This document shows, in pieces, positions 7,966 through 57,905 of a stretch of DNA of 64,000 bases. The stretch's first letter is position 1, and the number at the start of each line of letters is the position of its first letter. The notes beneath the pieces are model-generated. The model had not been told where the DNA came from, made no database searches, and saw only the letters and a program-made list of their open reading frames with translations. The translations under genes and the position numbers were made by a program. This DNA comes from Adineta vaga (Eukaryota; Animalia; Rotifera): positions 8,261,653 through 8,325,652 of the forward strand of contig CP075492.1 of assembly GCA_021613535.1 (NCBI GenBank). The letters run 5' to 3'.

Positions 7966-10900
7966 GTTTGAATCTCTTCCAATAAATTCGAGAGAAAATG
8001 TGTTTCTGTTGATTTACCATTAATTGATATATTAGTTGGAGAATTCTAAACAAGAGAAAGTGAAATAAAGTCTTGTCCGAAAAATAAAAATAACATACTG
8101 TAGATTTTAATAAAAGTGCAATCGGATGTCCTAAAATCGTTTCTGCATATAAAGATGCAGCTGAATTGATTTTTTCTACGACTAAAATAAGAAATCGTAT
8201 CGATAAGATGAATTGTTCTTTATAAATAGTCTACAAACCAGTTAGTCGAAAAGATTGACAAATATTATTAAGTATTGATGTAAAATCTTGATTCGATGAA
8301 GAGAGATTTATATTTGATTGAGATGTCAATGTTCCAGAACTCATCAGATCAGTAAAAGCATCACTAAATGAAATAATAAGACGAGAGAAAAAGAAACGAG
8401 AAGAATCAACTTACGAAGCGAGATTTTTTCTCCTTAAATATTGTGAACATGGTAGATTAAGTTTAAATTCAAGTGTATCACTTTCTGTTTTATTAGATTT
8501 CTAAAAAAGAAGAAGAAAATATTCTAACCGGATTGTTTTCTTATAAAACATACATTGACGGAATAAGTTAAAATTGTTTTTAATTTTTGAGGAAATGATA
8601 TTGCATTGATAGCAAAATAAATATGAAGATAATTTTGTGCATGAGGAAAAAGACTTATCGTTGAGAATGATATACGATTTGCACTTGTTGTATTTAGTAA
8701 TTTTGAACTCATACTATCGATAATATGAATATCAATATGATCAATGATTGATGATGTTTGATTTTTCAAAAGAAAAGTTATATCAAGTTCAGCTGTTGAT
8801 GGTTTTGGAGTTATCGAATATTCCTAAAAGATTTGATATACATTTAGAATTAACGATTTTCTCATTTTCAAATATGAGATAACTTACAATAGTTAGATTG
8901 TCAGATTGCGCAGCGAATTTGTAAGAATCTTTTTCAATATATTGTTGATTAGATTGATTTGTTGGAAGAATATCATCGCTCATTATATCGAATAGAAGTG
9001 GAGCAGATTTATTTGGATCTATTGTGGTAGTTTTTGATGTTGATTTTTTCTCTTTAGTTTTCTTTTTCTTTGATTTTTCTTCAGAAGTCGTTGAAGGAAT
9101 AGGAGACGATGATACAGGTTTTTCTTCTTCATCCGCTGGTGATAATAATTCTTTGTAATCATTACGTTCTGGTTCTTTCAGTTTCGATTTCAAAGTCGTC
9201 GATGTAGTCTTTTTCTCTATTGTTTTTTTCTTGGATTTTTTCGGTTTTTCACTTGATATAGACGAAGGAGGAGTTTCTACGGATTTTTGAGGTGATTCAT
9301 TAGGTCGAGATATGGGTTCAGGAGGTACAGATGTAGGTGGTTGTTTAGGTATTTCGTTTAAATCAATATTCAATGCTCGATGTGGATCATATTTTTTATT
9401 TTTCTGAATAATTCTATTGTCATCATCATTATCTTCATTACCACTTTCTGCTATACCTTCAGGTAATTCACCACCACGTGTCACTTTGATTGATGGATAA
9501 ATGTCATCATCATTATCATCAGCCGTTACTGTATCGGATTTTTTCGAAGATTTTTTGCCTTTCTTCGATGAAGTACCATCCGTTTTCGATTTTTTCTTCA
9601 AACGTCGATTTTCTTCGTCAATTTTAGTTTGACGATATAATTGATCTGAAAGAGAAGTTTGTAAGTTATTCGGAATCGTTCCTTTGTATGATGTAGCCGA
9701 AGGATTTTCATTGCCATTTGTCATATTCATCGATGTTTCAGGCTAGAATTTAGAGAAAAAAGAATTCGATAGTGATCAATCTTTAAAAACAAAACGTACC
9801 TTCGATGTACTTTTACTTTTTTTCGTATCTTTCAAATAGAATGGATTCATTTTTTCACTTTGTTTTCTTGATTCTCGTTGTTGTTCTAATTCGTCAGATG
9901 TCGGTTCAACATAATTTTTCGTCTTTTGGTAAGTTGATGTATCATTCATATATGAATTCGAATTATAACTATCTTCATTATTTTCATAAAACAATCCCTT
10001 ATTATCATAACGTGTGCTTTCTCACAACTGATTCATCTTCACTTTCCGAGGGTGGTTCATTGATCCAAGCATCCAAATCCAAACTAGAAAAAAAAGTCAT
10101 TTACAAATGAGGATTATTCAATCAAAATCAATCACTAATTTACCCATTTGGTACAGCAACTTTACGTTGAGCTTTCGCAGCAACTGGATTAAGAACACCA
10201 TCGAATAATACTGATAATTCATTGACATTAAATTCCGATTTTTCGAGAAGTTTTAATACTGTTTTGAGAATATGTAAAATAACACTTGCCTAAAAACGTA
10301 GATTGCGTTCTCTTTTCTCTCTATTCGATGAATTAAACATACGCGTTCTTGTGCTTCAACATCGCCACTTGATAAAAATGTTGACATTTTTTCAATGGTC
10401 ATTGAAATCAATTGTTTAGCTAAAATTTCATCATTATTCGATGATTGAATTAAATACGTGATAATTTTTAGAATATTTTGATAATAAACAGATTGAATAT
10501 GACCAGGAAAGACAATAATTTTTGTATTTAATATTGCTTGAAGTGTTTCCTGTGGTTCTTTCAAATATCTATCAAAACATTTTTCTCGTATAGAATAAAA
10601 AAAACAAAGAAATAGTTTTTCATTGATTACTTACGAACAAAATTCTCCACAAATCCATGCCGCAGCATATAAAACTTCTGCAACAGTTGTAGTATTTGAA
10701 CCGATAATAAAAACATGCGCATTTGCAAGAAGAATTGCCTGAAAAAAAAGAATGATTTTTTGTTTCTATTTATATTTGACAAATACTTACCATTTGGTTA
10801 CATGCAAATGGACGAATTGATTCAACACGAACAGCAACATCTAACATTTGTAAAGCAATGAGATTTCCATGTTTTGTTCCTTCGAGACGTGTTAATTCAA

Positions 10901-27173: not shown

Positions 27174-27650
27174 ATGTCATCAACAACATCTTCAGCTTCT
27201 CCTAGTGCACAAACACGACGTTTAGTACTAGATTTAAATTCATATAATAAAAATCCATTACCGTACATTCGAGATCTTCAATATTCCGTGGATTCAGATG
27301 GTTTTAATCAATTGCATGGAATATTAATTGGTCCAGAGAAAAGTTCATACGAGAACGGTCAATTTCATTTTCGAATTAAATTTCTACTAGAGTATCCTTT
27401 TAAACCTCATGAATTCTACTTTCTGACACGAATCTGTCATCCAAATGTAGAAACAGAAACCGGTCATGCTTGTCATGATGAACTTCTTTCCTCATGGACA
27501 CCACAGGTATCAATCATGACTATATTTTCGAAAATGCATGGACTTCTTGCACAACCTGATTATAATAAATATTACGAACAAAAAGTCATTCCAGGAAAAG
27601 ATCCAAATACAGCTCGAGAATGGACAGAGAAATATGCAATGCCTGTTTAG
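27174..27650 (+). CDS. Ubiquitin-conjugating enzyme E2, UBE2L3 (UbcH7)-like and divergent. Single exon, 158 aa.
   Basis: The UBC fold is recognisable: GILIGPEKSSYENGQFHFRIKFLLEYPFKPHEFYFLTRICHPNVETETGHACHDELLSSWTP versus human UBE2L3, which I recall as [61 protein letters not shown]. The HPN motif and the catalytic Cys are aligned. Confidence 0.7.
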   Translation: MSSTTSSASPSAQTRRLVLDLNSYNKNPLPYIRDLQYSVDSDGFNQLHGILIGPEKSSYENGQFHFRIKFLLEYPFKPHEFYFLTRICHPNVETETGHACHDELLSSWTPQVSIMTIFSKMHGLLAQPDYNKYYEQKVIPGKDPNTAREWTEKYAMPV

Positions 27651-27837: not shown

Positions 27838-30255
27838 TTATCTGTTTACACTAGGAGAAATGTAAGTGTCAACTTGTTTCATTTGGTTTTTACATCGACA
27901 GAGTGTCGTTGGTACAAAAACTGTTTCATTATTACAATAATGTATCGGATTATTTTCTTGTTGATGTGCAAGTAGATTCTGTTGTAATTCAGATACACAT
28001 TCTTGATGATTCGGATAGATCAATTGACTTCCAACAATGAGTACTGCTTGACACGGCTGATGTACTTGTTGTTGCTGCTGTTGTTGTTGTTGTAAATTTG
28101 GTGATGAATAACCTTTCATCGTCGACAGATATTCATGTGCATTTGACGAATGACAACAATGATAATGACGAAATGATGGCGGATAGGGTGGCAAAGCTGG
28201 TGCATTCGTATTCATTAATTTTTTATCATTATATAGAAATGGTTGTTCACTATCGGATGATAAGGATGGTAATTGTTCATAGAGACTATCATTAACTGGA
28301 AGACTCTCTGGTGTTTTATGTATTGGTTGATGAAGAGTCGTATGATAATAATAATGATGTGAACGTTGTCGTTCAAGTTCAGCTGTTATATGACGACGAA
28401 GTTTTCGTCGACAAATCGCCAATGATATAAGTAATAAAAGGAAGAGTAAAACGAAGAAAAGAAGAAAAAAAACGATGACAATTAATGTTTGATTATGTTG
28501 AATAAGATTCGATGCTGTAAATGAATCATGATGAAAGATTGAAAAGAGTTTTGACGGATCTTTAACAGATACAAATGATGGATAAATACTTGTTGTATAA
28601 AATACAGCATCGAATGAGACTATTAAAATAAACAAATTCAAAATATGTTTGATTCAATTGAACTAAGGTTTTTAATCAATATGAAACAAACCTGTCGTCG
28701 ATGATTCTGTTGTTCGTATAACACGAATTAAATCATCATTTTGATCAATTTTCCATCCGTAACTAATTATTTCTCCTTCATTAACTTGTTCATTTGATAA
28801 AATAACATATTGCAAATTTTTTAAACATCCAAATAAATTATTCATATTCGGTAATATTCTCATTAGATTTGAATTGTAACTTAAATTAATTTCTTGTAAA
28901 TTTGTCGCAGCACAAAATGTTTCATTCGTAAAATTTCGTATATTATTTTTCGCTAAATTCAATTTTATTAATAAACTTTTACCAACAAATACAAATGGTT
29001 TGATTTGTTCGATACGATTTTCTTCATAATTAAGTTCAGTGATTGTTTCCGGTAAAAGGATATGAATATGAGAGAAATTTCCTTGTCGACATTTGACAGT
29101 ATGTTGTGACCAAAGAGTATCATGTGAACATAAACAGTCAGAAGGACATACTGAATGACAATCACATGCTTCAAAATCACAACATGTACAATCGGATGTA
29201 CAATGTCGAGTATAGAAACATTGAAAATCACTTGAAGAAACATCAAAGATTGAACGAGAATTACATTGAAGAAAAGATAAATCAGTAATATTAATTGACG
29301 ATGAATTCAATAATGAATTAAGCCAACAATCGCATATGAGAGGATTACCATAGAGTATAAGTTGAAGAATAGGAGTATTTAAAATCTACAGAAGAACAAA
29401 AAGAAACATCATAGTTTAGATAAAAACATTTTTTGATAAATCGAAAAAATTTACTTGATAATCATCATGAGTTGACTTGTTCAGTATATCTTTGAAGAAT
29501 TCTAATGAATTTATTTGATTAAATCGAAGATCGAGTACTTGTAAAGATTTATGTAACCATTTGTTATCAATCCATGTCAGAGCATTAGTTGATAGATTCA
29601 AATATTCAAGTTCTATACTTCGATCAAGTATAGGCAATCGTTCTAAATGATTATCAGCTAATGATAAATGAGTTAATTTTTTCAATGATTTTAATAATGA
29701 TACAAGAGATGATTGTGCTAAATTACAATCAGTTAAATCTAATTGCATTAAATTTCTTGGTAAAGATGATAATTGAAGATGTTTATTATGACGAAGACTA
29801 AGACCAACTAGTTGTTGTTGATGAATATGATTTGAACCAAATTTAATTTCACGTAGATTTGGATTATGATCAAGATATAGATATTTCAACTGGAATGGTA
29901 ACGGATAAGAAAGTATAAATGTTGATAAAAGATTGTAACTTAAATCAAGTGTTTCCAATGATGATGGTAGAGAAAATGGTAATTGACTTAATGTTAATAA
30001 TTGACATGAATTGATTTGAAAAGTTCGCATTGTATAATTGGAAGAAAATGAAAATAATGGAAGATTCGTCATTGTTAATGTATTTGTTGTACATATTTGC
30101 TTTTCATCTTGTTGTAAAGATAGATATTCAATTAAAATAGTGCACTGTTCAGTTATTCGATCATTTGAAAAAAGAAAATGTTTATTATCCGTACAATTCC
30201 ATTCAAATGATTGACTATTGTGAATAAGAAAGATGATCAAGAAAATAAACATCAT
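27838..30255 (-). CDS. Leucine-rich-repeat type I transmembrane receptor with two LRR blocks separated by an LRRCT/LRRNT-like cysteine cluster, and no TIR domain. Three exons: 29431-30255, 28680-29372, 27838-28608.
   Basis: Exon 1 carries the signal peptide MMFIFLIIFLIHNSQS and about 10 LRRs (LxxLxLSxNxL). Exon 2 carries GNPLICDCWL (LRRCT) and then CTSDCTCCDFEACDCHSVCPSDCLCSHD...VKC followed by more LRRs. Exon 3 carries the TM helix VIVFFLLFFVLLFLLLLISLAI, the stop-transfer RRKLRRH, and a 190-aa Q/H/Y-rich tail. Confidence 0.8.
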
Positions 30256-30682
30256 CTAAAAGATTTGATAAAAAAAATGAAATTATATTAAGAAAAAAGA
30301 AGAAAATGTTTAAAATATATATATTTGAACAAAAGAAACACTAGGCGTTCTCTTAGAAGAAAATAATTATAAACACTGCATGTCTCTATACATATACATA
30401 TATGTATATAGAAAAGTAGTATAAATTAATTCAAATAACCTTACGCAACAGTAGGAAAGTTGATGATGATGATGATGATGAAAACATTTTGATTAATATG
30501 CATGAAATCTTGATGTTATTACAGTGAGCCGACAATTAAAGAAGCCGGAAGACGACACCTTGTCGATAGTATTCAATTGCATTATATATACAAAAGCCTA
30601 TGATACTAATCGATGAGAAAACGAGAGAAGCGCTAACTGACCTTGACCAATATTGCCTTGCTCGGTTTTTTCTTCTTCTCCC

Positions 30683-30712
30683 TCTCTCTCTCTCTCTTCG
30701 TCTTTCTTTTCT
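30683..30712. repeat. (CT)n microsatellite
   Basis: ctctctctctctctctcttcgtc, read directly from the sequence. Confidence 0.9.
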
Positions 30713-32329
30713 TATCACTTCAATCCAATCAATGTTGACGATGTATGTCGGATGTTCAAAGATGTATATCTATTTGCTTTAGTACTAATGACAAGAACTG
30801 TTAGTGAATCTAATTTAAGGAAAGCTCACTTTTGTTTTCTGTTATTCTAATAGAAGATCTAAATGAAGCTTATAATAGTAAATAGATGAGTGAATGACAT
30901 TTCATTCGATCTTATGATTGAAAAGATGAAGCAAACTCATTGTTCATACATATGTATATGTCTGATAATTAACAAAAAGAATCATCAACATAACAAATGA
31001 AATGAGCAATGAGGGAAATGAAGTGAAACGAAAGCTGATTCCCTCTTGTATAGTTGTCGTCATCTTATCTTGAAGAAAGAGAATTGAAATGAAAATGTGT
31101 AGATGTCTATATCAAACTCAGTATTGAATGTAAGCGTGAAGCGTGACCACAGCTGTATTGATGATTAATCTCCAAGGATCTGCTCTTTCGTTTGATGTTA
31201 TGATTATACTTTTTTTAACACTTTCCTATTCTTCTCAAAATAATAACGACAATTTCCGTCTTAACCATCTGCTTGACCTCATTTTCTTCTAGTTTTCTTT
31301 TTGTGTTCTAGTAAAACACTACTCGTTGAATATGTCAATTCTCTCTCTCTGCCATTAAATGACCACTCACTTTTGCTCTTATTTTCAAAGATTCATTCTT
31401 TTTTCAATTGAAAAAGAAAATGAATTAAATCGAAACTTTTCAATTAGAAGTAGGCGAGGCACATGGCCTCTGTCCCCTTAACTTTTATAAGGCTACGTAG
31501 ATGAACGACGTGTGGCAGTATATAAACAAACGAAAGAATACTTTCAAGCGACACAATGTGACAAAAACTATTGGTATATATATATGTATACCCGAGAGTA
31601 TATGTTATATTCTCATGAAGAAAAGATTCTACAGATAGAATATCAAATCAAACTTTCTGCACCATCAAAGATGTCAATCGAAAGACCTTGCAAATAAGAT
31701 TTATGTAAAAAAACGATGAAGAAAGAATGATTGACACATAAAGAGAAGAAACACAACTGTGTAACAGTTGATTGATCATTTTGCGCATCTATAACACTTT
31801 TTTTTCTCACTTTTATAACACTTGAACGTCACTTAAGAGGCAAAGATTATTTGAAATTAGACAAATACTTCTTCATTCTTCACTCGACGACATGCAGTGC
31901 AAATGATATAACACATTCACCTGTTCCAATCTATTCACTATTACACTTCATCTGACCTCTTTCTGTTCTTGTTAATTTGATCCGCTAGAAAAGAAAAAGT
32001 AACATTGTACACACCGTTTTCTTTTTATTACAATACCTCCTTCTTCCGATAGTTTTATTGGAAACAAAAGAATAAAAATAACATGTTGAAGACTTCTGGC
32101 TGAATAAACTCACTTTCTACTCATATCATCCAATCAATTGTGGAACGACGATTGCGTGTACATGTACTATTAAAATGTAAATATATATAAGACACACACT
32201 TGCTTGCTTGCTGGCTTTATAATATATGTATATTAATATTACTACTGTATTGTGATAGAATGACTGACATATATAAAAGAAGATGACTTTTCAACATAGG
32301 CTCTTTCTTCTTCTTCATCTTCTTCTTCT

Positions 32330-32362
32330 CTTCCGTTCTCTCTCTCTCTCTCTCTCTTTCGT
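32330..32362. repeat. (CT)n microsatellite, adjacent to (TCT)n at 32301-32330
   Basis: cttcttcatcttcttcttc followed by ctctctctctctctctctttc. Confidence 0.9.
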
Positions 32363-33715
32363 TTGCTTGTTCAATCATTGATGTTCGAGTGGCACACATA
32401 TACATACATACATACACATACCCTTCTTTATTCTCTCTTCTCAAATATCGGAAGAGTGCATATAGCAGTCATACTACTGACATAGCGTGCTATTAGATCA
32501 TTAAAGTTTGCAGTCAATAGGTTCATATCTCATCGTCGCGACATTGCATGCTATGTTTCGGAAGATAGATTAATTTCGAAAGTCGTTAGTATTTGATGAA
32601 AATTTTCTTCTCATGTCATTCAGCTGCTTCTTTTTATTGGCGAAAAAAAAAACTTTTCTTTTCAATTAAATTTATCTTAAAAATCATTCAATCTTTTCAA
32701 AATTGTTTTTCACACGCTTCATTCAATACTTCTCAAGGTAGACTTTAAAACAATTATTTTCATGTTTTCATTCATTCCTATTGATTTGTCGATGTCTTTT
32801 TAATACGTCTATGTTGATCGCTATAATTATTTCAACATCATATACACACACAAACATGTAATCGTCTAACATTTAAAGCAAGACGTATGCTTCCGATATA
32901 TTGATCATTGCAGGAGGTTGCCTATGATCATAGCAATGAAGTATATAGAATGTATGCCTGCAGTTATGTATAAAGCAGACAAAATGTCACTGAAAGACAC
33001 TAATGACAACTAAATGTATAGACGTTGACTTATCAAATGCTCACAACGCGTTTTTTTTTGTCTTATGAACATTGTTTCCATCTGTGCTTTTCTATTTTCT
33101 TTCTATTACTCAATTAGAAATATGACGAGATGAATAAGAGTGGCTTTCTTTTTTCGAAAGAAGAATGAATGTATGAATGAATGAAAATAAGCGAGATCGA
33201 ACAATTATCATTCAAGGCAAACTTTAAAATAAAGAACGACAGTGATTAGAAATTCTATACGGTTAAATGATTTAAATATGGATGAAAAGAAGACAACGGC
33301 TGATATCAAAACGATATTTCCAGGTCAATAGATCTGAAAGTTTTTTGCCTCTATAACAATGTAGATATCTGATTGTAAATTTGTATGATCAAGTCATTTT
33401 CTTTGACATTATCTGTTCAAAGAATTATTGATGATCATATCAGAAGATTAATTCTTTTCGAAACTTTCCGTTACTTCTTATATTTAAGAATAGAATCATT
33501 ACGTCATCGTCTCATAGCTATTCACTGACATACAATAGGAACATGATGTGTTAATAGCATCTATTGACAAGAAAAGTGAGCTTGATATTACTGAAGAAGA
33601 TACTTTGATTAAGAATGAATGAGGAAGATTAGCTATTGTCTTTAAGAGTTAACCTTATAGATAATGGAGAATCAGTTTTGTTTTATCAACGAAAAGGCGC
33701 AAGTTAAAGAACATA

Positions 33716-33738
33716 GACACACCCACACACACACACAC
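33716..33738. repeat. (CA)n microsatellite
   Basis: cacccacacacacacacactt. Confidence 0.85.
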
Positions 33739-34318
33739 TTACAAAATCAACTCGATTGATTACTTTTCTTTTCTTGAGAGAAACTGGATGATGGCGTTTA
33801 ATTAAAAAACTAAGATTTAATCGGCACCATCAATCTTAACATGTGGTATTGTATTAGAGAGAGAATTTATCGCAGAAAATAATAGATTATCGAAGTATTC
33901 TATATAAAAAGACAAAAAAAAGCCTTGGACGAAATAAATTAACCATAGATAATTAATGAGTTTGTTTTAGATTGATGGGATAAAAAAGATTTGTTCGAAG
34001 CGCAAACTGTTATTGGGAAACAATGTTGTAGATATTGATTTTGTTGGATACAAAGAGATTGTTGTTCATTTATTCGCTATATAAAAGCGACCTTTCATCA
34101 TTTCGTGTGTATGAAAACTTAGAATTGAATTTAAAATCGAACTTGAATAATTCCAAGATTTAGGTGATAACATCGACACACTGATTTTTATTTATATATA
34201 TAGAATACATGAGAGTAGACAATGAATAAAAGAGGGAAGGAAAAGCTTGCTGATGTTTTCGAGAGTGATAAATCCATATAAAAGATTTTGTCGATTGAAA
34301 GAAGAAAAATTAGGAATG

Positions 34319-34340
34319 TGTTTATGTGTGTGTGTGTGTT
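34319..34340. repeat. (TG)n microsatellite
   Basis: tgtgtgtgtgtgtgtgtt. Confidence 0.85.
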
Positions 34341-34654
34341 AAGAAAAAGAACAAGATAAAGAAAAAGAAACAAAAAGGAAATTGACGTTTGACGAGAAGT
34401 TTTCCTGACTAGTCATCTCTCCTCGTCATCAAAGTTTTGTTTTAATTAATTGATCATCATTCTCACATTCGTCGTTAGTTAATACAGAAAGAGATTCTCA
34501 TCCGAAAACACACTCAAAGACAAATGTTGGTGTTGTTGTTGTTGTTATTGTTGAGAATATATAAAAGAAAAAAAAAGGAAATGCGTTACATTGAAACGAA
34601 AGAAAAGAAAAGAAAGAGAAGAAAATTGGGCTGTTTTTTAAACATCATGTTCAT

Positions 34655-35619
34655 TCACTTTTGTTCATCATCGACATCTTGCACTTCATTATGTGCGTTA
34701 TCATTATCACCAGGCATATCCGTTGTCCATAATGTGAGATTGTCACGTAAAAGTTGCATAATTAATGTTGAATCTAAATGAAGGAAAAGAAAATTTTCTT
34801 TACATAAATAAAAAAATCTATTAAAACAATTCAAACCTTTGTATGTATCTTCATTGAGTGTATCCAATTCAGCAATGGCATCATCGAAAGCCTTAGAAAA
34901 GATGAAATTTCATTAGAAAAATCAATACAAATGAAGTCTAAACAAATGACATACTTGTTTAGCCAATCGACAAGCTCGTTCAGGTGTATTGAGAATTTCA
35001 TAATAGAATACCGAAAAATTCAAAGCTAAACCAAGACGAATGGGATGGGTTGGTGGTAATTCATTTTGAGCAATATCATTCGCTTTTGTATAGGCGACGA
35101 GTGAATTTTCTGCTGCTTCTTTTCGATCCTCTTGGGTTGCAAATTCAGCTTTATATCGATGATAATCACCTTTCATTTTTAAGTAAAAGACTTTACTTTC
35201 ACCTGATGCGGCATTTGGTAAAAGATTTTTATCAAGTAAATCAAGAATATCTTGACAAATATCACGTAATTCTTTTTCAACCTGAGAACGATATTTCTTT
35301 ATCATAGCCATTTTTGTATTTTCCGATTTATTTTCTTCTTTACTTTCAATATTAGTAATAATTCGCCATGATGCACGTCGTGCTCCAATTAAATTTTTAT
35401 AGGCCACGGAAAGTAAATTACGTTCTTCAACGGTTAATTCTTGATCCATTTTAGCAACTTTTTTCATGGATTCAACCATTTCTGATAAATTAAAAAACAA
35501 AACAAAGCAAATTAATTTTACGTTGTTAATTAAATTAGTTGTCTTTTCTTACCTTCATATCGTTCAGCTTGTTCAGCCAATTTAGCTTGATAGACATCAT
35601 CATCACGTGAGGCAGGCAT
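34655..35619 (-). CDS. YWHAE: 14-3-3 protein, epsilon type. Four exons: 35554-35619, 34955-35482, about 34838-34892, 34655-34774.
   Basis: [22 protein letters not shown] | [42 protein letters not shown]...[80 protein letters not shown] | [18 protein letters not shown] | [24 protein letters not shown]. This is near-identical to 14-3-3 epsilon. Confidence 0.95.
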
Positions 35620-36419
35620 AATTTCGAATAAAATGATAACGTTATACTAAAGAAACAAATCAGACGAGTGTTTTGTATATTTGAAGAGAAAAACGAATAA
35701 ACAAAGAATCTTAGTTGCCGACTAACAACCATTTTGTCTCGTTGAACCATTCACTCATATTGAATTGAATAATGAGGCAGAGATAAGAAAATTTTTAATT
35801 TATTTATTTTAATAAAAATATTTTCAAATTCAATAAGAATTCGAAAGAAAATTTATTAGACTTTGATTTGTTTCATTTTTTAAAGACATCTATAGATGTC
35901 AGGAGTGACGAATATGACTAACTTACATTTTATTTCACACTAAACATAATACTTACTAAACAGTTTGTATATGAATGTTAAAGAATTTCTCTTTGGTAAG
36001 GTCATACGAGGTTATAAACATGACGTCATATTATTCTCGATTTCATTTGATTATCTTCTTTTACGATTTGACTGATCATGGACTATTTATTTCTTTAAAT
36101 GAATTTTTCTTGTATAGAAGAAGAATAAAGCGCAATAGCATCATCTTTTCCTTTCGATTTATGTATACATAACAGTTTAACCGTACGATTTCGTTTTTCA
36201 AAACACGAAACAAATGAAGTCTAATTTCGAATGATGTTTATTATATCTCATTGATCATAAACTCTTTTTTTTTGTATGCATCAAATCTAATGTTGAATTT
36301 GAAGAATCTTCTACTAACAAATAAATAATAATTAATAATAATGATACATGAAAGTGAAACGAAGAAAATTGCAATAATGGTCATTTTTTTATTTGACTAA
36401 TTCATATCATTTGAAACGA

Positions 36420-37518
36420 TTAATAAACCATTTGTTGAGCCACTGGATTAAATAATGATAATTGATTAGAAAACGTATTCGCTGGTGTTGATAGTGTTTG
36501 ACCAGCTGCCATCATTGGCATACCGTTTGGAATCATTCGACCTTGTTGCATCATTGGATGATAACCAAATGGCATACCTTGACGAGCCATAGGATACATA
36601 TAGTTTTGAGGAACATATGATGATGGCATTTGAACCGGTCGATACATCATTTGTTGTTGAGCTTGTTGTGGCATCATACTCATCGATTGTGGTTGTTGTG
36701 GTGGTGGTAACATCATCATATTCGATGGTGCTGCTGGAGCACCTGGATTCATAGATGTTGGCTGGATGTATTCATAACTTGAATCCGATGAAAAACTTGG
36801 ATTATGTTCAAGAGCATTATGAACTAAAGCTGGACGTCCAACAGAACCAGTAATAGATGGTGTATGATAGGGATTATACGAAGTCATAAGACCATTCGAA
36901 AATGATGGTAATGTATTACAAGGATGGTTGTATGGTGAACTTGGTTGACTAAAACCACTGCGAACTGGTCGATCAACTTTAATTACTCTAAAATAGAATA
37001 AGATACAGAGATCATTGACACATTAAAGTGAATATATACCGTGTTCGAACAATTGGTGGTGGTGCTTCTTCATGCATTTCTTTTTGAATAATACGTGGAG
37101 GTGGTGTACGTGGTTGTTCAATAACACGTTCAAGAATTTCTTGAGGTTGGGGTCGAATAATAACCTAGATAGTATGTAAGAAAAAAAGATTATTTCATTA
37201 GTTTTATCGCCATAGTTCAAAACTTACACGTTCCATAACAAGTGCTTCAGGAGTTGGAGCTCGTTCAACAACTCGTTTAATAATTGGTGGTGGTGTTTGA
37301 GCACGTACAACATCACGAGAACATTGCATATCTCGTGTTATTATTTGACCTTGATATTCATAACTATCTGTACTTTCACTATCCGATGAAAAGGATTCAG
37401 GCGAATAGGAACTTTGCCGATCATCATATGTATTTGGATAACCAGCTGACATTAATGTTGGATCAATATTGTAACCAAGTGCAGCTCCACCATTTGGATA
37501 GGCGAATCGATAAGACAT
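36420..37518 (-). CDS. Proline-rich, Q/M-rich low-complexity protein of unknown family. Three exons: 37229-37518, about 37040-37165, 36420-36990.
   Basis: The three ORF segments join in phase through GT/AG junctions (...LVMER|gtaagt; ttag|VIIRPQPQEILERVIEQPRTPPPRIIQKEMHEEAPPPIVRT|gtatat; ttttag|VIKVDRPV...). Short modules of the form xVxERxxTPPPxII recur. The C-terminal 150 aa is an M/Q/P-rich prion-like tail. Confidence 0.5.
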
Positions 37519-38046
37519 ATCTTATTTTGAGTTGAACGTTTGTATGAAAAGTGAATAGATAGTGAAAAGTGCTGTCTATTGTCACACATTTACTATCACC
37601 GATATGGTTCAATGCATTTTGAAAAAGACCAATCAAAAGGACATATTCAAATCAAAAAGAAAAACGATAGAACGACGGGACAATGACCTCGTTAATGAAA
37701 ATTTAAAATGAACCATTGCGCTGTTCAATGTCTTTCGCTCTCTTGATCAATTTAATCAGCACTTGAAGCTATCAATTAGTTTCTTTTTTTAAAACGAACA
37801 TCACACTATACACATAAAACTACTTCTCCCATATAACCATTCTTTATTAAATATCGATTTCTCTCTATGCATGATAAATTACAGAAAACTAGATAACAAT
37901 CATGAAGATTGATACTTGATTTCTTCTTTTTTTTTTATTTTGTTTATTTTGACTGAAGAAAGATAAAATAAAATTTTTGTTCATTGCTCACTCGATATTC
38001 TTATCAAGAGAAAAAAGGTAGAGACAAAATGTTGTTTATTTGTATT

Positions 38047-38391
38047 TTATTTGCCCAATCCTGATGCAAATTTAGCAGATGCAAGTCGTTTACCCAAACC
38101 GGAAGCAAATTTTGCATGTGATAAACGTTTGCCAAGACCGCTAGCAAATTTAGCTGAAGCTAAACGTTTACCAAGACCGCTAGCGAATTTAGCTGAAGCT
38201 AAGCGTTTGCCAAGACCACTGGCAAATTTTGCCGAAGCAAGACGTTTATCCAAATCAGATGAATCTTCTGAACTGGTAATAACATCCACTGATTCATCAC
38301 TGTCAAGGTAGGTTGTTGATTGAACAGTGTTGAAATTGAAAAGAAACAGGACGGCGAGAAGACCAACAAGAACAATTAATTTTGTCTGCAT
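38047..38391 (-). CDS. Secreted neuropeptide precursor with a signal peptide, an acidic spacer, and five tandem KR-flanked copies of LASAKFASGLG (one copy is a LSHAKFASGLG variant). The predicted mature peptides are LASAKFASGL-amide. Single exon.
   Basis: MQTKLIVLVGLLAVLFLFNFNTVQS is a typical signal peptide. It is followed by an acidic propeptide (DSDESVDVITSSEDSSDLD) and then (KR-LASAKFASGLG) x5, ending ...GLGK*. Dibasic cleavage sites and a C-terminal Gly as the amide donor are present on every copy. The 39-bp DNA units differ at synonymous positions while the peptides are identical. Confidence 0.7.
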   Translation of the reverse strand: MQTKLIVLVGLLAVLFLFNFNTVQSTTYLDSDESVDVITSSEDSSDLDKRLASAKFASGLGKRLASAKFASGLGKRLASAKFASGLGKRLSHAKFASGLGKRLASAKFASGLGK

Positions 38392-40711
38392 ATTGTTTGA
38401 TAATAGAATAGTATTAGTAATAAGTTAATCGTAGGAACTAAAATCAGAAGAACAACACAATCTTCGTGTACTCAATCGTTTTTAAAAGATATATGAAAAA
38501 AAACAAGCGAATTCTCTGGAGAAAACCGAAATGAAAATACGTAACTGAAAGGGAGTGATGATGATGTATGGGAAAATTATATTTAAGTATGAATTATTTT
38601 TATGAAGATTCTATATAGTAGTTCCCGGAAAGAAAAACAGTTCATTGTTTTTCTGATAATGAAAAAAAGAAAGACTAATCATTCATTGAATATGTACGTC
38701 ATCATTTATGATAAGTATTTTCATATTTGTATTTGTTCGATTAAAATCTCTTGAAGAAATAAAAAAAGAGATAGATTCTTTTGAATGATTGATTTACATA
38801 CATACGTAAAGAAAACATACGAAATAGAAAATTAATGATGATTAATGAATAAATAGTGGAGGTGGTAATTGAAAAAGTAGGCGAATCTTTTCATCTGTCG
38901 ATTAGATAAATATACGTAATAATAACAAAAAGAAAAAGATTTATCCATAATGAATGAAACTAGTTTTTCTTGTGTGCAAAAAGAAAAAGAATACTTCATA
39001 TCTCTACTAACACTAAGAGAAAGAAAACGTCACAAACAATGAGTTTCGGATGTATTCTTCGTAGGAGAAATTCTTGATCTTTTGTTCTCAACTTCAAGAG
39101 ACACCGCAAACGTAACACATTATTCTATTTCAGATGTCAACTACATATTCTCTTCCAAATCTGATTGATCGTTCACAGAAGACTATTCAGTTAGTTTAGA
39201 ACGACGAAAGATTTTCCTTTCTTTTTTTTATTCTTTGACTTCAAGCAAGATAAGATCTCGATGTTCAATTGAGCTCGTCTGATCAATTTAAGATAGTATC
39301 AATCAAGGAAAAGATTGATAAAAAAAAGAAAACTTTTTCGCTATATGTCAAAAAATATTATTTGAAAGATAAGATTATTTACTCAAGTAGAATATTCTAA
39401 CCAATTGAATTCGTGATATTTATTGAGATGTTATCTGATCGAATGATCATCAAAGTTTTTTATGCCCTTCATATCAGTTTGTTGAGAAAAGTAACATGAA
39501 GGTGTTTCATTTCCATATAGTTTAACTAACAGTATCAGAAAATAGAAAGCTTTTGGGATTCATTGCTTACTGAAGTCATTTGTAGTTGGAATTATTGCTG
39601 AATAGATTATGAATTTATTGTGTTGATAAAATACAAGGTTAAATATAAATGTAGCGGGTTAGTATGCTCCTTTTTCTGGAAGAAGATCACATAGAATAGG
39701 TACAACAACAGAGAAATTGTTTCATTAATCTGCTTTTATTAAACATTGAAAACCAGAGAGAAAATGTTATGGGAAATCTTATACGAAGAATATTAAGCAA
39801 AGAAACAATTCTAATTAAAATTTTACATTTGATTTATAAGATGTTTTGATGAGATAAGAGTTCATCATAGAAAAGTTTGATTTGATACGCTATGATGCTT
39901 TGTATCAAAAAACAATGTTATTTTCCCAACATACCTTTTTTGATTAAGCAAAAAAGAATTCGATTGGATCATGCTATATTGATATGTTGAAACAGGATAC
40001 ACCATTCATTGGTATTCACGGACTCTTTATGCTTGTAGGCAAACGTTTATATTCTTCTCTTCATTCGCAGATGATTTCTAGTGGCTAGACCACTATTTTA
40101 ATAAAGTGTGTGAGGGAGGAAAGAGTCAAATTACACTTCGACGTAATCAAACTGAGTGTATCGACCTTCTAAGTGGAAATAATCCATAGAAAGACTTTTG
40201 TCTACTATTTATTTCATATCGATGCGATATCTCCATAATCCGACGATGACAATACTTCAAACCAATAGATTTCGAACTTCCATTTGATACTTACTATTAC
40301 AAATATTGATGCAATAACTTTTCTTACGATCGCATATGTTCGAGAACGACAGAATAAACCTGTCACTTCAAATTTGAATTGATGTAAGAATGTGTCATGT
40401 AATCTTCGCAAGACATTTCATTTCTTCAACATAAAGAAATTTCAAACACATTATTTCATTATTATTGCTGAATAATACCCAGTCAATATTTGCTATAATT
40501 TATTGAATAAAATACTTCGATAAATTTCATTTGCATTCGATCCGAGAAAAAAAGGTAAATTTTTTTTAAAAAGAAACCTACTAACGTATGTCTATAGATC
40601 ACAACGATTGACTTTTCGATTGTAAATTTACATAATAACTAATAACAACGGTTGTATAAATGAACAAAAGAAAATCAAATCAACTTTTTTTTCTTTTTCG
40701 AATTGCAGACA

Positions 40712-44129: not shown

Positions 44130-47100
44130 GATTTTAAACAGCAAACATTTGAGGAATATATAAATCTGATTCATTCAACGATTGAGATAAATCATCCAGA
44201 GCAACTAGATTTGTATTCATAGATGATGAAGGATCGACTGGCATTCCAGTTGGATCAGTAGTTCCATTTGTTGCATACATACTTGCGTACAGACGACGCT
44301 AAATTAATTTTGAGAAAAAGAATATAGACTATAATGATAAAGTTTCGCATACCTTCTTAGCTTCATTCTCCATCACTTCATAATGGTCGGCATAATGTAC
44401 ATTTGGATTCGTCGTTGTTCCATACATACGATAATGTTGTTGTTGCTGTTGTTGCTGTTGCTGTTGTTGTTGTAAAATATGACGAGAATGTTGTTGTTGC
44501 TGTTGTTGAGAAGGATCAAGATAAGGTAATTCAATCAGTCCATTCTTTCCTTTATTTGTGGTCACTAATGTTCGTCGAACGATAGGTCGTAATTTATACA
44601 ATGGAGGTTCAGGGGCGTTTGCTGTTATACATTTTGGACATAACCATGTCTCTGGGATATCATCACTAAATACACCTTCATTAGTAGGAGCATCTGTATG
44701 AGAAGACTAGAAAGAAGAAAAATACATTGTCAAGAAGTTTGTTCGATGTTACTATGAATAAGAAAACTATTGGATTTACATGAAAACATGGTAAATGATG
44801 AATTTCCATACAACGTTCACATTCATAAAGAATTTCTTCAGGTTTTAATTGAGATAATTTTCGAGAACCTTTCTTTTTCAAGCAAACTTGACATGATGCT
44901 GTTGAAGGTAGAATTGGAGCAATACATTGTTTAGTTAAACAACATTGTTTCATTTTTCCAACGCCACCAAATTTAGGCATATCTTTACAATGTACACATT
45001 CGGAACAATCATCTCGACAACATGGTTCACATTGTTTACATCTAGAAGATGAACAAAAACAAATCAGCATATAAAACGAAAATAATTGGCAAAATTCATA
45101 CCGAACACGTTTATGTCGATCTTTTGCAGTGGTACTTTTATCGGTTTGATAGTGTTGTTGAGTGGGAGATGTAGTTGGATTGTATTGATTATAATTATTA
45201 ACATACTGTTGTTGTTGTTGTTGTTGTTGCTGTTGCTGTTGTGGAGAATAATAATTTGAAGAATTAGAACTAGCTAATGGTCCACTTAATAGGACAGTTG
45301 TTGATGGATGTAATGTAACAACACTTGAACTTGGTTGTTGCATTGACAATGTATCATATTGATGAGAAGGATGAAGATGATGAAAAGATGGTTGTTGCAT
45401 ATCGTTGTCAACAGGATTTTTACGTTTTATGCCTTGAAAAGACTCCGTTTCGTTCTAAGAGAAAGAAAGATATACGCAATGAATGTTATATCATCAATGA
45501 AGAGAAGAAGAAAAAACACCATGTCGAAACACGATGACTTTTGTAATAGTTTATTTAGAGCTCCGACTTTATGTACATGTGTCTATCTCTATTGTTTTTC
45601 TTCAGCTTACTTGATTGTTAGTTGAATCGAACGAATAGTGATGATGATTATAGTTGTAATGAATTAGTGATTGACCAGTTACTGATAAATGGGGATCATC
45701 AGAAGCATGATCAATAAGAAGACGCTAGAAATAAGATTCACTTATATATTTATATTAAAGTCCAAGGTTAACAACAAATAGAATGAGAGGTCAAGTGAAT
45801 TTGACGTGTAAATATCTATTCAGAGGATATATAGACATTGTCATAGTTCTTTTCTATTGATCAGATTCTTTTAAATAGAAATTATTTAAACAGATGAAAT
45901 ATTAACGAGAGTATTTTATGTATATATTATCGAGGTCAAATAACTAACCCTCAAGAGAGAGTGAGTGAGTGAGAGAGAGAGAGATTTTGTTGGGTAAATT
46001 CTTTCAATTTAATTTACTATACCTCCATAGATTCCAAAAGTTGTTGTGGTTGAACGAGATCTTCCGGGATCGATTTGTCTTTTAATTTGCGTAAGAGAGC
46101 ACATAATGTTTTCAAACCGTCTAGTTCAAATTGAGTCAAATGTTGATGTGTTACTTCAATGTCTTTATTATTATTATGATTGTTCACTAGCAACAATTGA
46201 CTTGTTTGACAAGGTTTCAGATCTAAAGGCAGAGCAATAATATATATATATATATGTGGAAGAAATTGAGACAAAAGGGCTTCCTATTTGCTGCTCATCA
46301 TTTGAACAGAATAACAATGGACCTCTCGAAATACGAAGAAGGATAGTGAATATGAATAAGAAAAGAAAAAAACATCATAGTTTTCAAAAGAAAACGAGAG
46401 AGAAGAGATACCTTGATTTACAAACATATGTCTACCTGTCTGCACTAATCGATCGCAATTATAAAGATTTTTTACAGAACTAAAACTGCATACAACTAGA
46501 AATAAATCGAAGCAATGAACAAAGCAAAAAGGAGAGACAGAAACAGAGAGAGAAAAAAGACGACGAGTTTTTCCCTTTTTCGCTCCTATGCGCTCATTCA
46601 TAAAAGATTTGAGTAATTTGCACACAGATTTCTTTTCTTCTCTCTCTCCCTCTCTGTCTCTCTCTCTCTTTTCTTTGAGTGATCAGAAGACAGCAATAGC
46701 ATAGGAAAAGAGGGAAGGAAAAATTTTGAACAAAGAACAAGGCACAAGCGCGCATTGTGTAGCGAGAACATATTATTATGATTGTGTGTGTGTGATTGCA
46801 CAAGCGAGAGAAAGTGATTGACGAGTGAGAGAAAGAAACGAGAACGTCGAATGATCAGGTTGTAATAGCGGTAGTGCGTATTAATTATTCTCTTCTTTTT
46901 CCTTCTAGTTTTTTTTGTCATTTCAAATAAGAATTTCAAATTGATGGTCTTCACCTACTTCTCGAGATTTCCAAGTGCAATACATAGGCACTACTTGAAA
47001 ATTTATAATAAATATATGCGTAGTAGTTTGGCCAAGAAAAGAGAAGAAAAGAGAGAGAGAGAGTGGGTGAAAGATTTCATTTATTAATTAGCAAACACAA

Positions 47101-54388: not shown

Positions 54389-57300
54389 ATGATATGCAAA
54401 AATATTAATACGAAATTAAGATCACAAAGAGAAATTAAAGGAGATCCCATAGAGCAGTCTAATATAGAACAATTAAGCAGTTATGAACGTAAAATGGCAT
54501 ATTTTATACGTTTTCATCTACGAGATATTTTAACCAGTGATCATCTTCATGTTTGGTTTAATATTCAGACAAAATCATTAGAAGAAATTCAAGATCGAAG
54601 TCAAATATTGAGAAATGTTCCGGAAGACATCGATGTTGTCTATTGTTTTGGATCGATGCTTTCATATGATACATTTATTGAACACTCTAATGATCGTTCT
54701 CTTGCTCGTATTTGTCTTCAAAAACGCTCTAAAGCAATTCAATTAAAAATAGGATCATGTGTTATATTGATTGAACTCAGAAATATTGATTCACAACTTC
54801 TAATCAATCATTCAACTAAGGATAACTCTATACAAGTTATTTTTATGCTTAAATCACCACCGATTATCGAACAACTACAAGGACAAATTCATCGGTAAGT
54901 TAGAGAAGTATTTCATTGGATATAAATCATCTTTACTAGACTGTGTCTTTTCTCATCGTAAATTCGAACGTAAAAACAAAATACGAAATATTTTCTTCTT
55001 GAAGTTTTTATATCTTCTAACTGCATGACATCATTCTTCAAACTAAAATCCTAAAAATGTCATAGGTTAATTTCTATAATTTATGTATTTAGTGATAGAA
55101 AAGCAATGATCGAAGGAATTCCACATTGCAGTGATTTGCTCATTCGTTTCTTTCCAGCAAGTCATGCATGGATATTCTTACGAGAATTACCAATTGCTGG
55201 ATATACTCGCAGACCATCCGGTAATTTATTTCATATAAATTTTGCTATATTTGCATGGCAAAAAGATCCCAGTTATTTACTTCCTATGGGTAAACCAACG
55301 TACAATTCGTACTATGAATCTTATGCTATGGAAATGCTCTGGTCATTGGGTTATATCTATCAAGATAAATACAATGCTGATTCACAAGTGATGAACAATA
55401 TGCGAAATAAGAATTTCTATGATTTAGGTTGTAAAATTTGGCATAATTTAAAAATAAATCACTGTTATCGTCTTCGAGATGCATTAAATGATCGAAAATC
55501 ACAAAATAATACTAAGAATTCAAGTGGATCATCAGAATTGAAAGAAGTAGCATTTGTAATATTAACACCATCTCGTATTGAATATCAACCAATGCCAACA
55601 ACAATTTCTCATCGAGGTTTTAATTTTTACGATTCTGAACAGTGGTTGCTTGTTCATATACGAGATCATAATGGAATGGATAAGATTCGTGAATTAGATT
55701 TACAGAATAAAGTACGATTCAAGAATTTCATGATACAAGGTATTCGTCGAAATGATCGTTTGTATCGATATTTTGGTTCATCGAATAGTCAAATGAAAGA
55801 TCAAGCTGGTTGGTTTTTATCTCTTCCTCAAGGAGAAACGATAGAAAAAGCACGTGAAAAACTTGGTGAATTATCAAAAATACCCAATGTATCTACATAC
55901 ACGGCAAGACTTGGTTTGTATCTATCAACATCACGATCTGCTGAAGTAAGATTACTTTTCAATTAACTTGATTCTTTCTAAAAGATTATATGGTATGATA
56001 ATTAATATTCATTTTTCACATCTAGATCAAGCTAGTGAAGAAAGGCGAAGCACAAGATAAAGACGGAGGATCATATATAAACCAATCATCAGGATTCTTT
56101 TCTTCTCTGATAACGTTCCAAGAAGGTATTATAAATGAAGTCTGAATGAAGTATTTCTCAGGGAGATATTTTTAGGTTTTTAAATCTGAAAATAAACCAA
56201 TAGAATATATGGCTATTATTATACCGGATGAGAAGCATAATGACTTTAACTTTACTGATGGTTGTGGTAAAATTTCATGGGCTCTTGCCAAAAAGGTTGC
56301 GTTGAATATCGGTATAAAAATTAGCGAGAATGTAAGTTGTATCAAAGCTTTTCAAACATTCTACTCAATGTATGATTCTAGTCGGATGTACCATCGGCGT
56401 TTCAAGTTCGAATAGCTGGCTGCAAAGGCATGTTATCTATAGATCCCAAATCAAAAGGCAAAGGCAAATTGTACTATATTTTGGTTCGAAAGAGTATGGT
56501 CAAGTTTGATAGTGATGATTGGACTCTGCACATTGTCGACCATTCGCGTCCTAGTAAGTGCTCAATAAAGCAGACAATCTTCATAAACTTTCTATTTAGT
56601 GCCACTAAGCTTGAACAATCAAGTTATTCGTTTATTGAGCGACTTGGGTATTAGTAATGGTATGTTCGAATCGATTCAACAACGATGTATCGACCAGAAA
56701 GAATTCTGGCATCCACCACCAAAAAGTTATCTGAATGCAATGGATTCTCTTGATCAACAAGCAATTGAGGATAAACGAAAACAATACAAAAATGCGTATG
56801 TTTCTTGTTTTTTTTATAGTATCCATATACTAGAATGCAGTTGAAACTTTTCAGAAAACATTTTCTTGAACGAAATAAAATACCATTACCATTAAATGAT
56901 GGTCGATTCCTATTTGGAATTGCAGATGAAACAGGAACATTGAAACCAGGACAATGTTTTATCCAGTATCGGGATCTCAGGAATTCACCAAGATCAAAAA
57001 TATATCATGTACATGAAGGTACAATTGTAACAGTCCATATTTCTAAAACATGATTCATTGTTCGAAACAAATTTATTCTAGGAACTGTTATAGTGACAAA
57101 AAATCCATGTCTTCATCCTGGAGATGTACGTAAACTTGAGGCAGTTTGGGTAGAAGCACTAGAGTCTTGTATACGCGATTGTATTGTATTCAGTACACAA
57201 GGTCTTCGGCCAAGTTTCAATGAAATGGCTGGTTCCGATTTAGACGGCGATCAATACTGGGTCTATTGGGGCGATGAACTCAAAGTTACACGACCCGTTG

Positions 57301-57905
57301 AACCACTATTATATCCATCAGCCGAGAAAAAGCCTAGCGGTTCTATAACTAATGATCTCATTGTCGATCATGTACTTAATTCATTTACAAATAGTGTCGT
57401 CGGTACGATCGGTAATTTACACAAGGTTATTGCTGACAAAGATCCACGTGGCACCCTCTCTCCAGAATGCAAAGAATGTGCATCACTCTTTGCTCGAGCA
57501 ATTGACGCATGCAAAACCGGTGAAGAAATTCCCAAAAATCGAATTAATCAACTGAAGGAAAAATATTATCAAACATGTCCAACCTGGATGATGAAATTTG
57601 ATAAACCAGTTATGGATCCACCAAGTACATCAATCAACGAAATTCTTTTTCGCAAAGCTCAAGAATCATGGCTAGATGAAGATTGCTATCATGATATTGT
57701 TCGACCATTTCAAGGTGTTGAATTTCCTGAAGAATTAATTGCAATTGATATTGACGATACAAATGAAACAGAAGGAACTCAAGATGAAAGTCAAATCCAA
57801 CGTATGGCTATTATATTATGCTGCAAATCATGCTGTTTATGCATATTTTGGACTGCAATCGTAATAGTCCTTTTATACGGTATTTTAAATTGGTGGAAAA
57901 AGTAA
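54389..57905 (+). CDS. Cellular RNA-dependent RNA polymerase of the RDR family (as in RRF/EGO-1/QDE-1), with 8 or more exons. Approximate exons: 54389-54895, 55093-55943, about 56026-56140, about 56185-56336, 56384-56554, 56598-56794, about 56822-56994, 57082-57905.
   Basis: The last exon contains GTVIVTKNPCLHPGDVRKLEAVWVEAL...VFSTQGLRPSFNEMAGSDLDGDQYWVYWGDEL. DLDGD is the RDR catalytic signature, and ...KNPCLHPGD... is the conserved motif preceding it. Upstream exons give RLYRYFGSSNSQMKDQAGWFLS, IIPDEKHNDFNFTDGCGKISWALAKKV, DVPSAFQVRIAGCKGMLSIDP, LNNQVIRLLSDLGISNGMFESIQQ and LNDGRFLFGIADETGTLKPGQCFIQY. All are canonical RDR blocks, and they join with consistent phases. The exon 3/4 junction is the only one I could not resolve cleanly. 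Confidence 0.9.

Follow-up and report, generated by a model that had tools for sequence, protein, structure and literature searches.

The open reading frame (ORF) at 38047-38391 on the minus strand of the window, by which is meant the whole 64,000-nucleotide stretch of Adineta vaga contig CP075492.1 that was analysed here, is very probably the A. vaga orthologue of the bdelloid neuropeptide precursor that has been catalogued as Allatostatin-A_1, and a buccalin-type member of the allatostatin-A (AST-A)/buccalin superfamily. The predicted peptide fits the buccalin-type pattern, with its aromatic residue at -5, its small residues and its G-L-amide ending, and the peptides of monogonont rotifers form a bridge to the classical forms. 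In lophotrochozoans, buccalin is regarded as the counterpart of AST-A. The family is already catalogued and not new, and the A. vaga copy is an ordinary addition to it. A first-pass annotation, made from the letters alone, had read the ORF as a neuropeptide precursor; its sequence-level predictions all hold, and neuronal expression, cleavage, amidation and bioactivity are inferred. The same annotation had not recognised the FASGLamide peptide as a named family; the novelty that this implied is not supported, since the NP-HMMer preprint (bioRxiv 10.1101/2024.07.20.604414) already has such precursors under the name Allatostatin-A.

The ORF list and the translation give a complete coding sequence of 114 amino acids in a single exon, from the ATG at 38389-38391 to the stop codon TAA at 38047-38049, at exactly the coordinates that had been proposed; the Rotaria socialis orthologue is likewise predicted as a single uninterrupted gene of 342 nt. 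The precursor is laid out as MQTKLIVLVGLLAVLFLFNFNTVQS, TTYLDSDESVDVITSSEDSSDLD, three copies of KR-LASAKFASGLG, one copy of KR-LSHAKFASGLG, and a last KR-LASAKFASGLG followed by K and the stop codon. The predicted signal peptide MQTKLIVLVGLLAVLFLFNFNTVQS (residues 1-25; 38317..38391, minus strand, as are all the coding features that follow) comprises the n-region MQTK, a 14-residue hydrophobic core at residues 5-18, and V-Q-S before TT; on inspection of the n-, h- and c-regions the -3/-1 rule is satisfied by V-Q-S25, with cleavage predicted after Ser25. SignalP calls exist for the orthologues only, SignalP 6 signal peptides being marked on the bdelloid orthologues in the NP-HMMer preprint. 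The propeptide TTYLDSDESVDVITSSEDSSDLD (residues 26-48; 38248..38316) is acidic by composition, with 8 Asp or Glu and no Lys or Arg among its 23 residues, so that the signal peptide and acidic propeptide of the first reading are both borne out.

Downstream of the propeptide the translation places Lys-Arg dibasic sites at residues 49-50 (38242..38247), 62-63, 75-76, 88-89 and 101-102, each of which precedes one of five directly abutting units made up of KR and 11 residues. Units 1 (38209..38241), 2 (38170..38202) and 3 (38131..38163) read LASAKFASGLG, with LASAKFASGL-NH2 as the predicted product; unit 4 (38092..38124) is the variant LSHAKFASGLG, with LSHAKFASGL-NH2 as its predicted product; and unit 5 (38050..38085) is again LASAKFASGLG, followed by the terminal Lys114 before the stop codon. 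The units had been described as five identical ones, each bounded by KR: in fact four are identical and one differs, a variant that the description did mention, and KR precedes all five units but the last closes with G-K-stop, without a KR of its own. The Gly that was seen as the amide donor does close every unit and stands before every cleavage site, a pattern that is invariant in 19 aligned bdelloid sequences. At the DNA level Tandem Repeats Finder reports an array at 38066..38254 with a period of 39 bp, 4.8 copies and 76% matches, in agreement with the 39-bp repeat first noted. The predicted masses, as [M+H]+, are 963.562 for LASAKFASGL-NH2 and 1029.584 for LSHAKFASGL-NH2; the corresponding [M+2H]2+ values are 482.285 and 515.296. 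A six-frame motif scan of the window revealed no second precursor copy.

The five units differ from one another at 3-14 of their 39 nucleotides, and the codon differences summed over the 10 unit pairs amount to 63 synonymous and 8 non-synonymous ones, with unit 4 involved in all eight of the latter. The synonymous changes include switches between AGY and TCN serine codons, which take two steps, and among the leucine codons CTT, TTA and TTG. Synonymous divergence between units had been remarked on before (the DNA strings quoted in the first-pass annotation are those of the plus strand, the reverse complement of the coding strand) and had been attributed to purifying selection on the peptide and not to recent slippage, an interpretation that the comparison with relatives upholds. 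By the Nei-Gojobori method the ratio of non-synonymous to synonymous divergence (dN/dS) for the repeats comes to ~0.10 when R. socialis is the partner and ~0.045 when it is locus L008, and the propeptide gives ~0.15 and ~0.52 in these two comparisons. With distant bdelloids dS is saturated, and dN reaches 0.6-0.9 in the propeptide, the fastest-evolving portion of the protein, as opposed to 0.12-0.20 in the repeats. Purifying selection is concentrated on the peptide units, above that on the propeptide. Moreover, each A. vaga unit is nearest to the same-numbered unit of R. socialis, the differences along the diagonal being 3, 6, 5, 7 and 5 nt and those off the diagonal mostly 8-15 nt. This unit-by-unit positional orthology implies that the five-unit array is older than the split between Adineta and Rotaria and that each unit has been kept separately; neither recent slippage nor a chance ORF is compatible with this. 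That the ORF is real, far beyond chance, also follows from the fact that the same ORF has been kept in about 35 bdelloid proteins.

These relatives were recovered in a search of 5.8 billion protein clusters, which found 35 homologues, from R. socialis, R. magnacalcarata, R. sordida, Adineta steineri, A. vaga and Didymodactylos carnosus or from environmental contigs, all annotated as hypothetical and none with a Pfam domain. Across 19 aligned bdelloid sequences the string K-F-A-S-G-L-G-(K)-R-L is invariant; the variable parts are the propeptide and the first four residues of the unit, which read LASA, LSSA, LTSA, LANM or LAPA, and the number of units ranges from 3 to 5. The position of unit 4 reads LSSA in the nearest relative, P0001. 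In Rotaria, Adineta and Didymodactylos the units are thus still conserved at the peptide level, KFASGLG-(K)R without any change, and the loss of peptide conservation among orthologues that had been named as an argument against a precursor is not observed. The genomic setting is conserved as well: the precursor, a gene for a 331-amino-acid protein, a 14-3-3 gene and a leucine-rich repeat (LRR) gene follow one another on the same strand both in the window and at the R. socialis locus of P0002, and blastn aligns window positions 28729-38958 collinearly with that locus at 68-75% nucleotide identity.

The prior record of these precursors is confined to supplementary files, as FASGLG, SGLamide and similar peptide strings occur in no main text of the open-access papers in PMC and the preprints on bioRxiv, and a literature search yielded no papers pairing Rotaria with buccalin. 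Bdelloid KFASGLG precursors are listed as Allatostatin-A in Figs S7, S9 and S10 of the NP-HMMer preprint (bioRxiv 10.1101/2024.07.20.604414), where the entry ‘Rotaria_socialis_Allatostatin-A_1 | Rsoc7983’ is identical to P0002, the syntenic orthologue, to which the A. vaga precursor is 79-80% identical. In the same supplement Rsoc31746 corresponds to P0017, and Dcar12455 and Dcar11442 of Didymodactylos carnosus to P0032 and P0035; Aric33919 of Adineta ricciae also stands under Allatostatin-A, and a Brachionus plicatilis precursor is given with the peptides AIDKMRFYGGLG, LDRMRYFGALG and LDKMKYFGGLG. An earlier survey by De Oliveira et al. 2019 (PMC6425005) includes KFASGLG precursors from R. 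tardigrada, R. sordida and R. socialis in its Datasets S2/S3, which were built from SRA transcriptomes (the Rotaria RNA-seq runs being SRR2430028, SRR2430030 and SRR2430032), where they close the AST-A block of Dataset S2. Transcripts of homologues are therefore present in the Rotaria assemblies of that study. Two Logan contigs, L006 and L007, were considered as further transcript evidence and set aside, as flanks of ~500-900 nt on either side give them the appearance of genomic DNA. Supplementary note S4 of PMC6425005 also describes a multi-copy Rotaria precursor of non-amidated 11-mers, SLDSLSGNDFF, flanked by KK/KR and named FCAP-related; this was considered as a candidate for the present gene and rejected, being a different precursor with peptides that are not amidated, and it does not occur in the window.

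The likeness to known systems is greatest among the bdelloid Allatostatin-A precursors, in which, as in the window gene, a signal peptide and an acidic propeptide are followed by 4-5 directly abutting 11-mers with KR sites between them and an unchanging KFASGLG; Rsoc7983 occupies the same syntenic locus. What sets the window gene apart from the bdelloid precursors of bioRxiv 10.1101/2024.07.20.604414 is one LSHA unit and its species, A. vaga being outside that survey. The monogonont precursors (B. plicatilis Bpli20339; B. calyciflorus CAF0847132.1) have in common with it the length of the peptide, a Leu at the N-terminus, an aromatic residue directly after a basic one, and the G-L-amide end, as can be seen when LDKMKYFGGLa (monogonont), LANMKFASGLa (Didymodactylos) and LASAKFASGLa (A. 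vaga) are aligned; however, the monogonont copies are spaced by acidic spacers whereas the bdelloid copies abut directly, and where monogononts have YFGGL or FYGGL as the core, bdelloids have FASGL. Mollusc buccalins and annelid AST-A (for example Urechis unicinctus QUP52014.1, and the mollusc-type matches P0127 and P0046), with peptides such as LDRYGFAGSLa, RFGFAGGIa and AMRFAGLa, are likewise multi-copy and amidated, with an aromatic residue at -5/-4, small residues and a G-L/I-amide end, but the xDRY/F motif with which buccalins begin does not occur in the bdelloid peptides, whose residue at -3 is Ser. Arthropod AST-A shares the architecture of the precursor and the G-L-amide ending, yet its defining Phe at -3 is replaced by Ser in the bdelloid peptides. 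Put differently, the core F(-5) A S G L is of the buccalin type (compare F-V-G-G-L, F-A-G-S-L and Y-F-G-G-L), with a single deviation, Ser for Gly at -3.

Profile comparisons point in the same direction. A profile built from the bdelloid alignment and run against 1.84 billion representative proteins gave 140 matches at E <= 1e-3, of which 137 were non-bdelloid, and these were sorted by the residues that precede G-[KR][KR]. The largest class consists of FGLamide AST-A precursors (50/137), followed by F-x-(G/S/A/Q)2-(L/I/M/V)amide precursors (45/137), which include mollusc-type buccalins, Brachionus-type precursors and a large copepod AWNSGFAGGMamide group; a further 5/137 are MGFamide precursors, which presumably resemble nematode NLP-5/6. 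Together, AST-A, buccalin-type and MGFamide precursors make up 100 of the 137 matches; several of the 37 left as ‘other’ are still buccalin-like, and of all the matches only a few belong to other amidated families. Named matches include ‘allatostatin-A [Urechis unicinctus]’, a Brachionus calyciflorus protein and a Caligus rogercresseyi transcript. When the bdelloid and monogonont alignments were compared by hhalign, a probability of 98.6% was obtained, with E = 1e-15. A core-only comparison was also made with G-KR removed, in which the seven residues before the Gly were scored ungapped as the mean best BLOSUM62 score. The mean was 18.0 for the monogonont rotifer peptides, above the 99th percentile of 15 for the null of shuffled units, 14.2 for the copepod FxGGXamide peptides, 13.4 for mollusc-type buccalin, 11.7 for arthropod AST-A, 3.7 for Urechis AST-A and -7 to 4 for the controls FMRFamide, Wamide and CAPA. 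The low score of Urechis is attributed to its peptides being one residue shorter and so offset in an ungapped comparison.

A number of observations weigh against the assignment to the AST-A/buccalin superfamily, or at least temper it. The Pfam model PF05953 (Allatostatin) did not match the window protein at E <= 10, although as a control Drosophila AstA was matched at 3.2e-15, and Pfam as a whole returned only sub-threshold noise for the window precursor. The Didymodactylos and Brachionus precursors were likewise unmatched by PF05953, and since it also misses the Brachionus precursor the model is arthropod-specific. The arthropod AST-A core Y/FxFGLamide is not present, the peptide reading K-F-A-S-G-L-amide with Ser for Phe at -3. 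Every profile score owes part of its value to the common G-K-R signal and the periodicity of the repeat, and short peptides may reach GLamide endings convergently. The transcript support described above comes from Rotaria homologues. The exact 114-amino-acid product is absent from the gene-position index and from a collection of 15 billion proteins. Finally, the authors of bioRxiv 10.1101/2024.07.20.604414 term all of their assignments predictions that await functional work.

Another A. vaga copy, UJR37113.1 (I4U23_029817; 104 amino acids, with a ...GLGKRSLE tail), lies on a different contig of 13.9 Mb and is present in the 15-billion-protein collection, and therefore the copy in the window seems to have been overlooked, probably already when the deposited A. 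vaga gene models were made. The presence of two copies on separate contigs fits the ohnologue pairs that are expected in a degenerate tetraploid.

With these points in mind, one might ask whether the ORF encodes a true amidated neuropeptide precursor of a rotifer-specific family, whose GLamide ending is convergent and whose receptor is a different one. The absence of a canonical FGLamide core and of a PF05953 match would be expected of such a family, short peptides are poor in phylogenetic signal, G-KR and periodicity inflate profile scores, and the ungapped core score against Urechis AST-A is just 3.7. This scenario is nevertheless unlikely, as LDKMKYFGGLa and LDRMRYFGALa bridge the Didymodactylos peptide LANMKFASGLa to classical buccalin through their 10-residue length, N-terminal Leu, M-K at matching positions and G-L ending; the hhalign probability and the monogonont core score, with control families far lower, agree with that bridge; and about three-quarters of the profile matches are AST-A, buccalin or NLP-5/6-like, not a random mixture of amidated peptides. 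A secreted multi-copy peptide with a non-neuronal role, be it antimicrobial or in mucus or defence, is very improbable. Multi-copy KR-flanked precursors do exist among antimicrobial peptides too, but a peptide of 10 residues that has a net charge of ~+1 and lacks an amphipathic design is a poor candidate for such a function, and a C-terminal hexapeptide that does not change from one bdelloid genus to another behaves as a receptor ligand does, unlike a fast-evolving defence molecule; similarity to known neuropeptide families argues against this role as well.

The idea that there is no native gene at all, and that the ORF arose by chance over a 39-bp satellite, by recent slippage, or as a horizontally acquired fungal repeat protein processed by Kex2, has hardly any probability left. 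It draws on the facts that the region is a tandem DNA repeat, that bdelloids carry many foreign genes, and that a signal peptide with KR-bounded repeats is also the layout of fungal alpha-factor-like, Kex2-processed precursors. Chance and slippage are at variance with the excess of synonymous over non-synonymous unit differences (63 to 8), the positional orthology of units across genera, the synteny with R. socialis and the Rotaria transcripts. A fungal origin was considered separately and rejected, since the close homologues are from rotifers or metagenome contigs and Gly stands before every cleavage site, as opposed to the KR(-EA) spacers without an amidation Gly of the fungal precursors; the distant matches, most of them without a taxon name, are mainly animal-type neuropeptide precursors.

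The anatomy of the precursor suggests how the product would be made. The prepropeptide would enter the endoplasmic reticulum via its signal peptide and be cut after Ser25; from general prohormone biochemistry, prohormone convertases would then cut after each Lys-Arg, an enzyme like carboxypeptidase E would remove the basic residues, and peptidylglycine alpha-amidating monooxygenase would take the terminal Gly as the amide donor. The expected products are four copies of LASAKFASGL-NH2, one of LSHAKFASGL-NH2 and the acidic N-terminal propeptide. By analogy with the family, the peptides may be released from peptidergic cells and act on a G protein-coupled receptor of the galanin/allatostatin-A type, and the effect would probably be an inhibitory modulation of feeding or muscle activity, as for AST-A and buccalin.

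A variant of this scheme is that KFASGLamide is not a ligand of the AST-A receptor, and that the bdelloid, monogonont and mollusc buccalin-type peptides form, together with the copepod AWNSGFAGGMamide, an old family apart from the FGLamide AST-A; we hold this to be decidedly unlikely. Were it true, two related systems would have been ancestral in protostomes, given that copepods have both kinds, and the near-absolute constancy of KFASGL among bdelloids would be the outcome of co-evolution with a receptor of its own, still an orphan. Copepod precursors of the AWNSGFAGGMamide type (P0037, P0041, P0043, P0047, P0048, P0050-P0053, P0057 and others) are among the top non-rotifer matches of the bdelloid profile, with E values of 1e-16 to 1e-9, and P0052 among them is the Caligus rogercresseyi transcript. 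We take these precursors to match the ‘FXGGXamide’ family. Copepods have true AST-A as well (xFGIamide in Calanus), and in crustaceans the FXGGXamide-like family could thus be a paralogue of AST-A with buccalin-like features. The precursor P0142, from a 390-kb contig in ENA, encodes AFKYSSLamide, LKYASLamide and AFKYGGLamide, and this motif is the nearest to the KFASGLamide core among the non-rotifer matches examined in full.

The significance of the locus is modest, and no long-standing question depends on this precursor. The additions to what has been catalogued are an A. vaga copy that is apparently unannotated, the positional orthology of the units across genera, and the observation that the arthropod-based Pfam model is blind to the family. 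As A. vaga is the main laboratory model among bdelloids, the locus, the predicted peptides and their masses should be useful for the deorphanisation of AST-A/buccalin receptors and for the mapping of peptidergic neurons.

The non-coding flanks of the precursor gene contain several motifs. Two AATAAA hexamers, at 38046-38051, where the hexamer overlaps the stop codon, and at 38035-38040 (38035..38051 in all, minus strand), were found by inspection and motif scan within 20 nt of the stop codon and are candidate poly(A) signals. On the other side, an alignment of upstream regions picks out the motif TTTTAG|TTCCT (38433..38443, minus strand) ~40 nt 5' of the ATG. Similar to a splice acceptor, the motif is kept as TTTYAG|TTCCT in the upstream regions of A. 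vaga, R. socialis L001 and locus L007; judged by its sequence, it could be a spliced-leader trans-splice site or the end of an intron in the 5' untranslated region. The hexamers and the acceptor-like motif, as far as motifs can tell, fit a compact expressed gene. A second conserved upstream block, ACGATTGAGTA, lies ~40 nt beyond the TTTTAG|TTCCT motif.

The window is AT-rich, with a GC content of 30.7%, and also contains genes for 14-3-3, E2, LRR, zf-CXXC, AP3D1 and RNA-dependent RNA polymerase proteins; scans for Rfam families and tRNAs gave no matches in it. Directly downstream of the precursor, at 36420-37518 on the minus strand, is the orthologue of the 331-amino-acid R. socialis protein, whose position is conserved across genera; the product, in which Q, P and M are abundant and two SSDS...YEY segments resemble each other, was matched by no Pfam model. 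It is followed on the same strand by the 14-3-3 gene (34163-35794) and the LRR genes (28672-31533). The minus strand also carries a gene for a zf-CXXC protein with a poly-Q tract (44681-45400) and a C-terminal fragment of AP3D1 (8789-9730). On the plus strand, the single-exon gene at 27174-27650 encodes an E2 ubiquitin-conjugating enzyme that is 100% identical to I4U23_013363 of Adineta vaga and whose JGI homologue is labelled peroxin-4, and the multi-exon gene at 55106-57905 encodes a eukaryotic RNA-dependent RNA polymerase, matched by Pfam PF05183 in two ORF fragments (E = 1.5e-16 and 7.5e-44).

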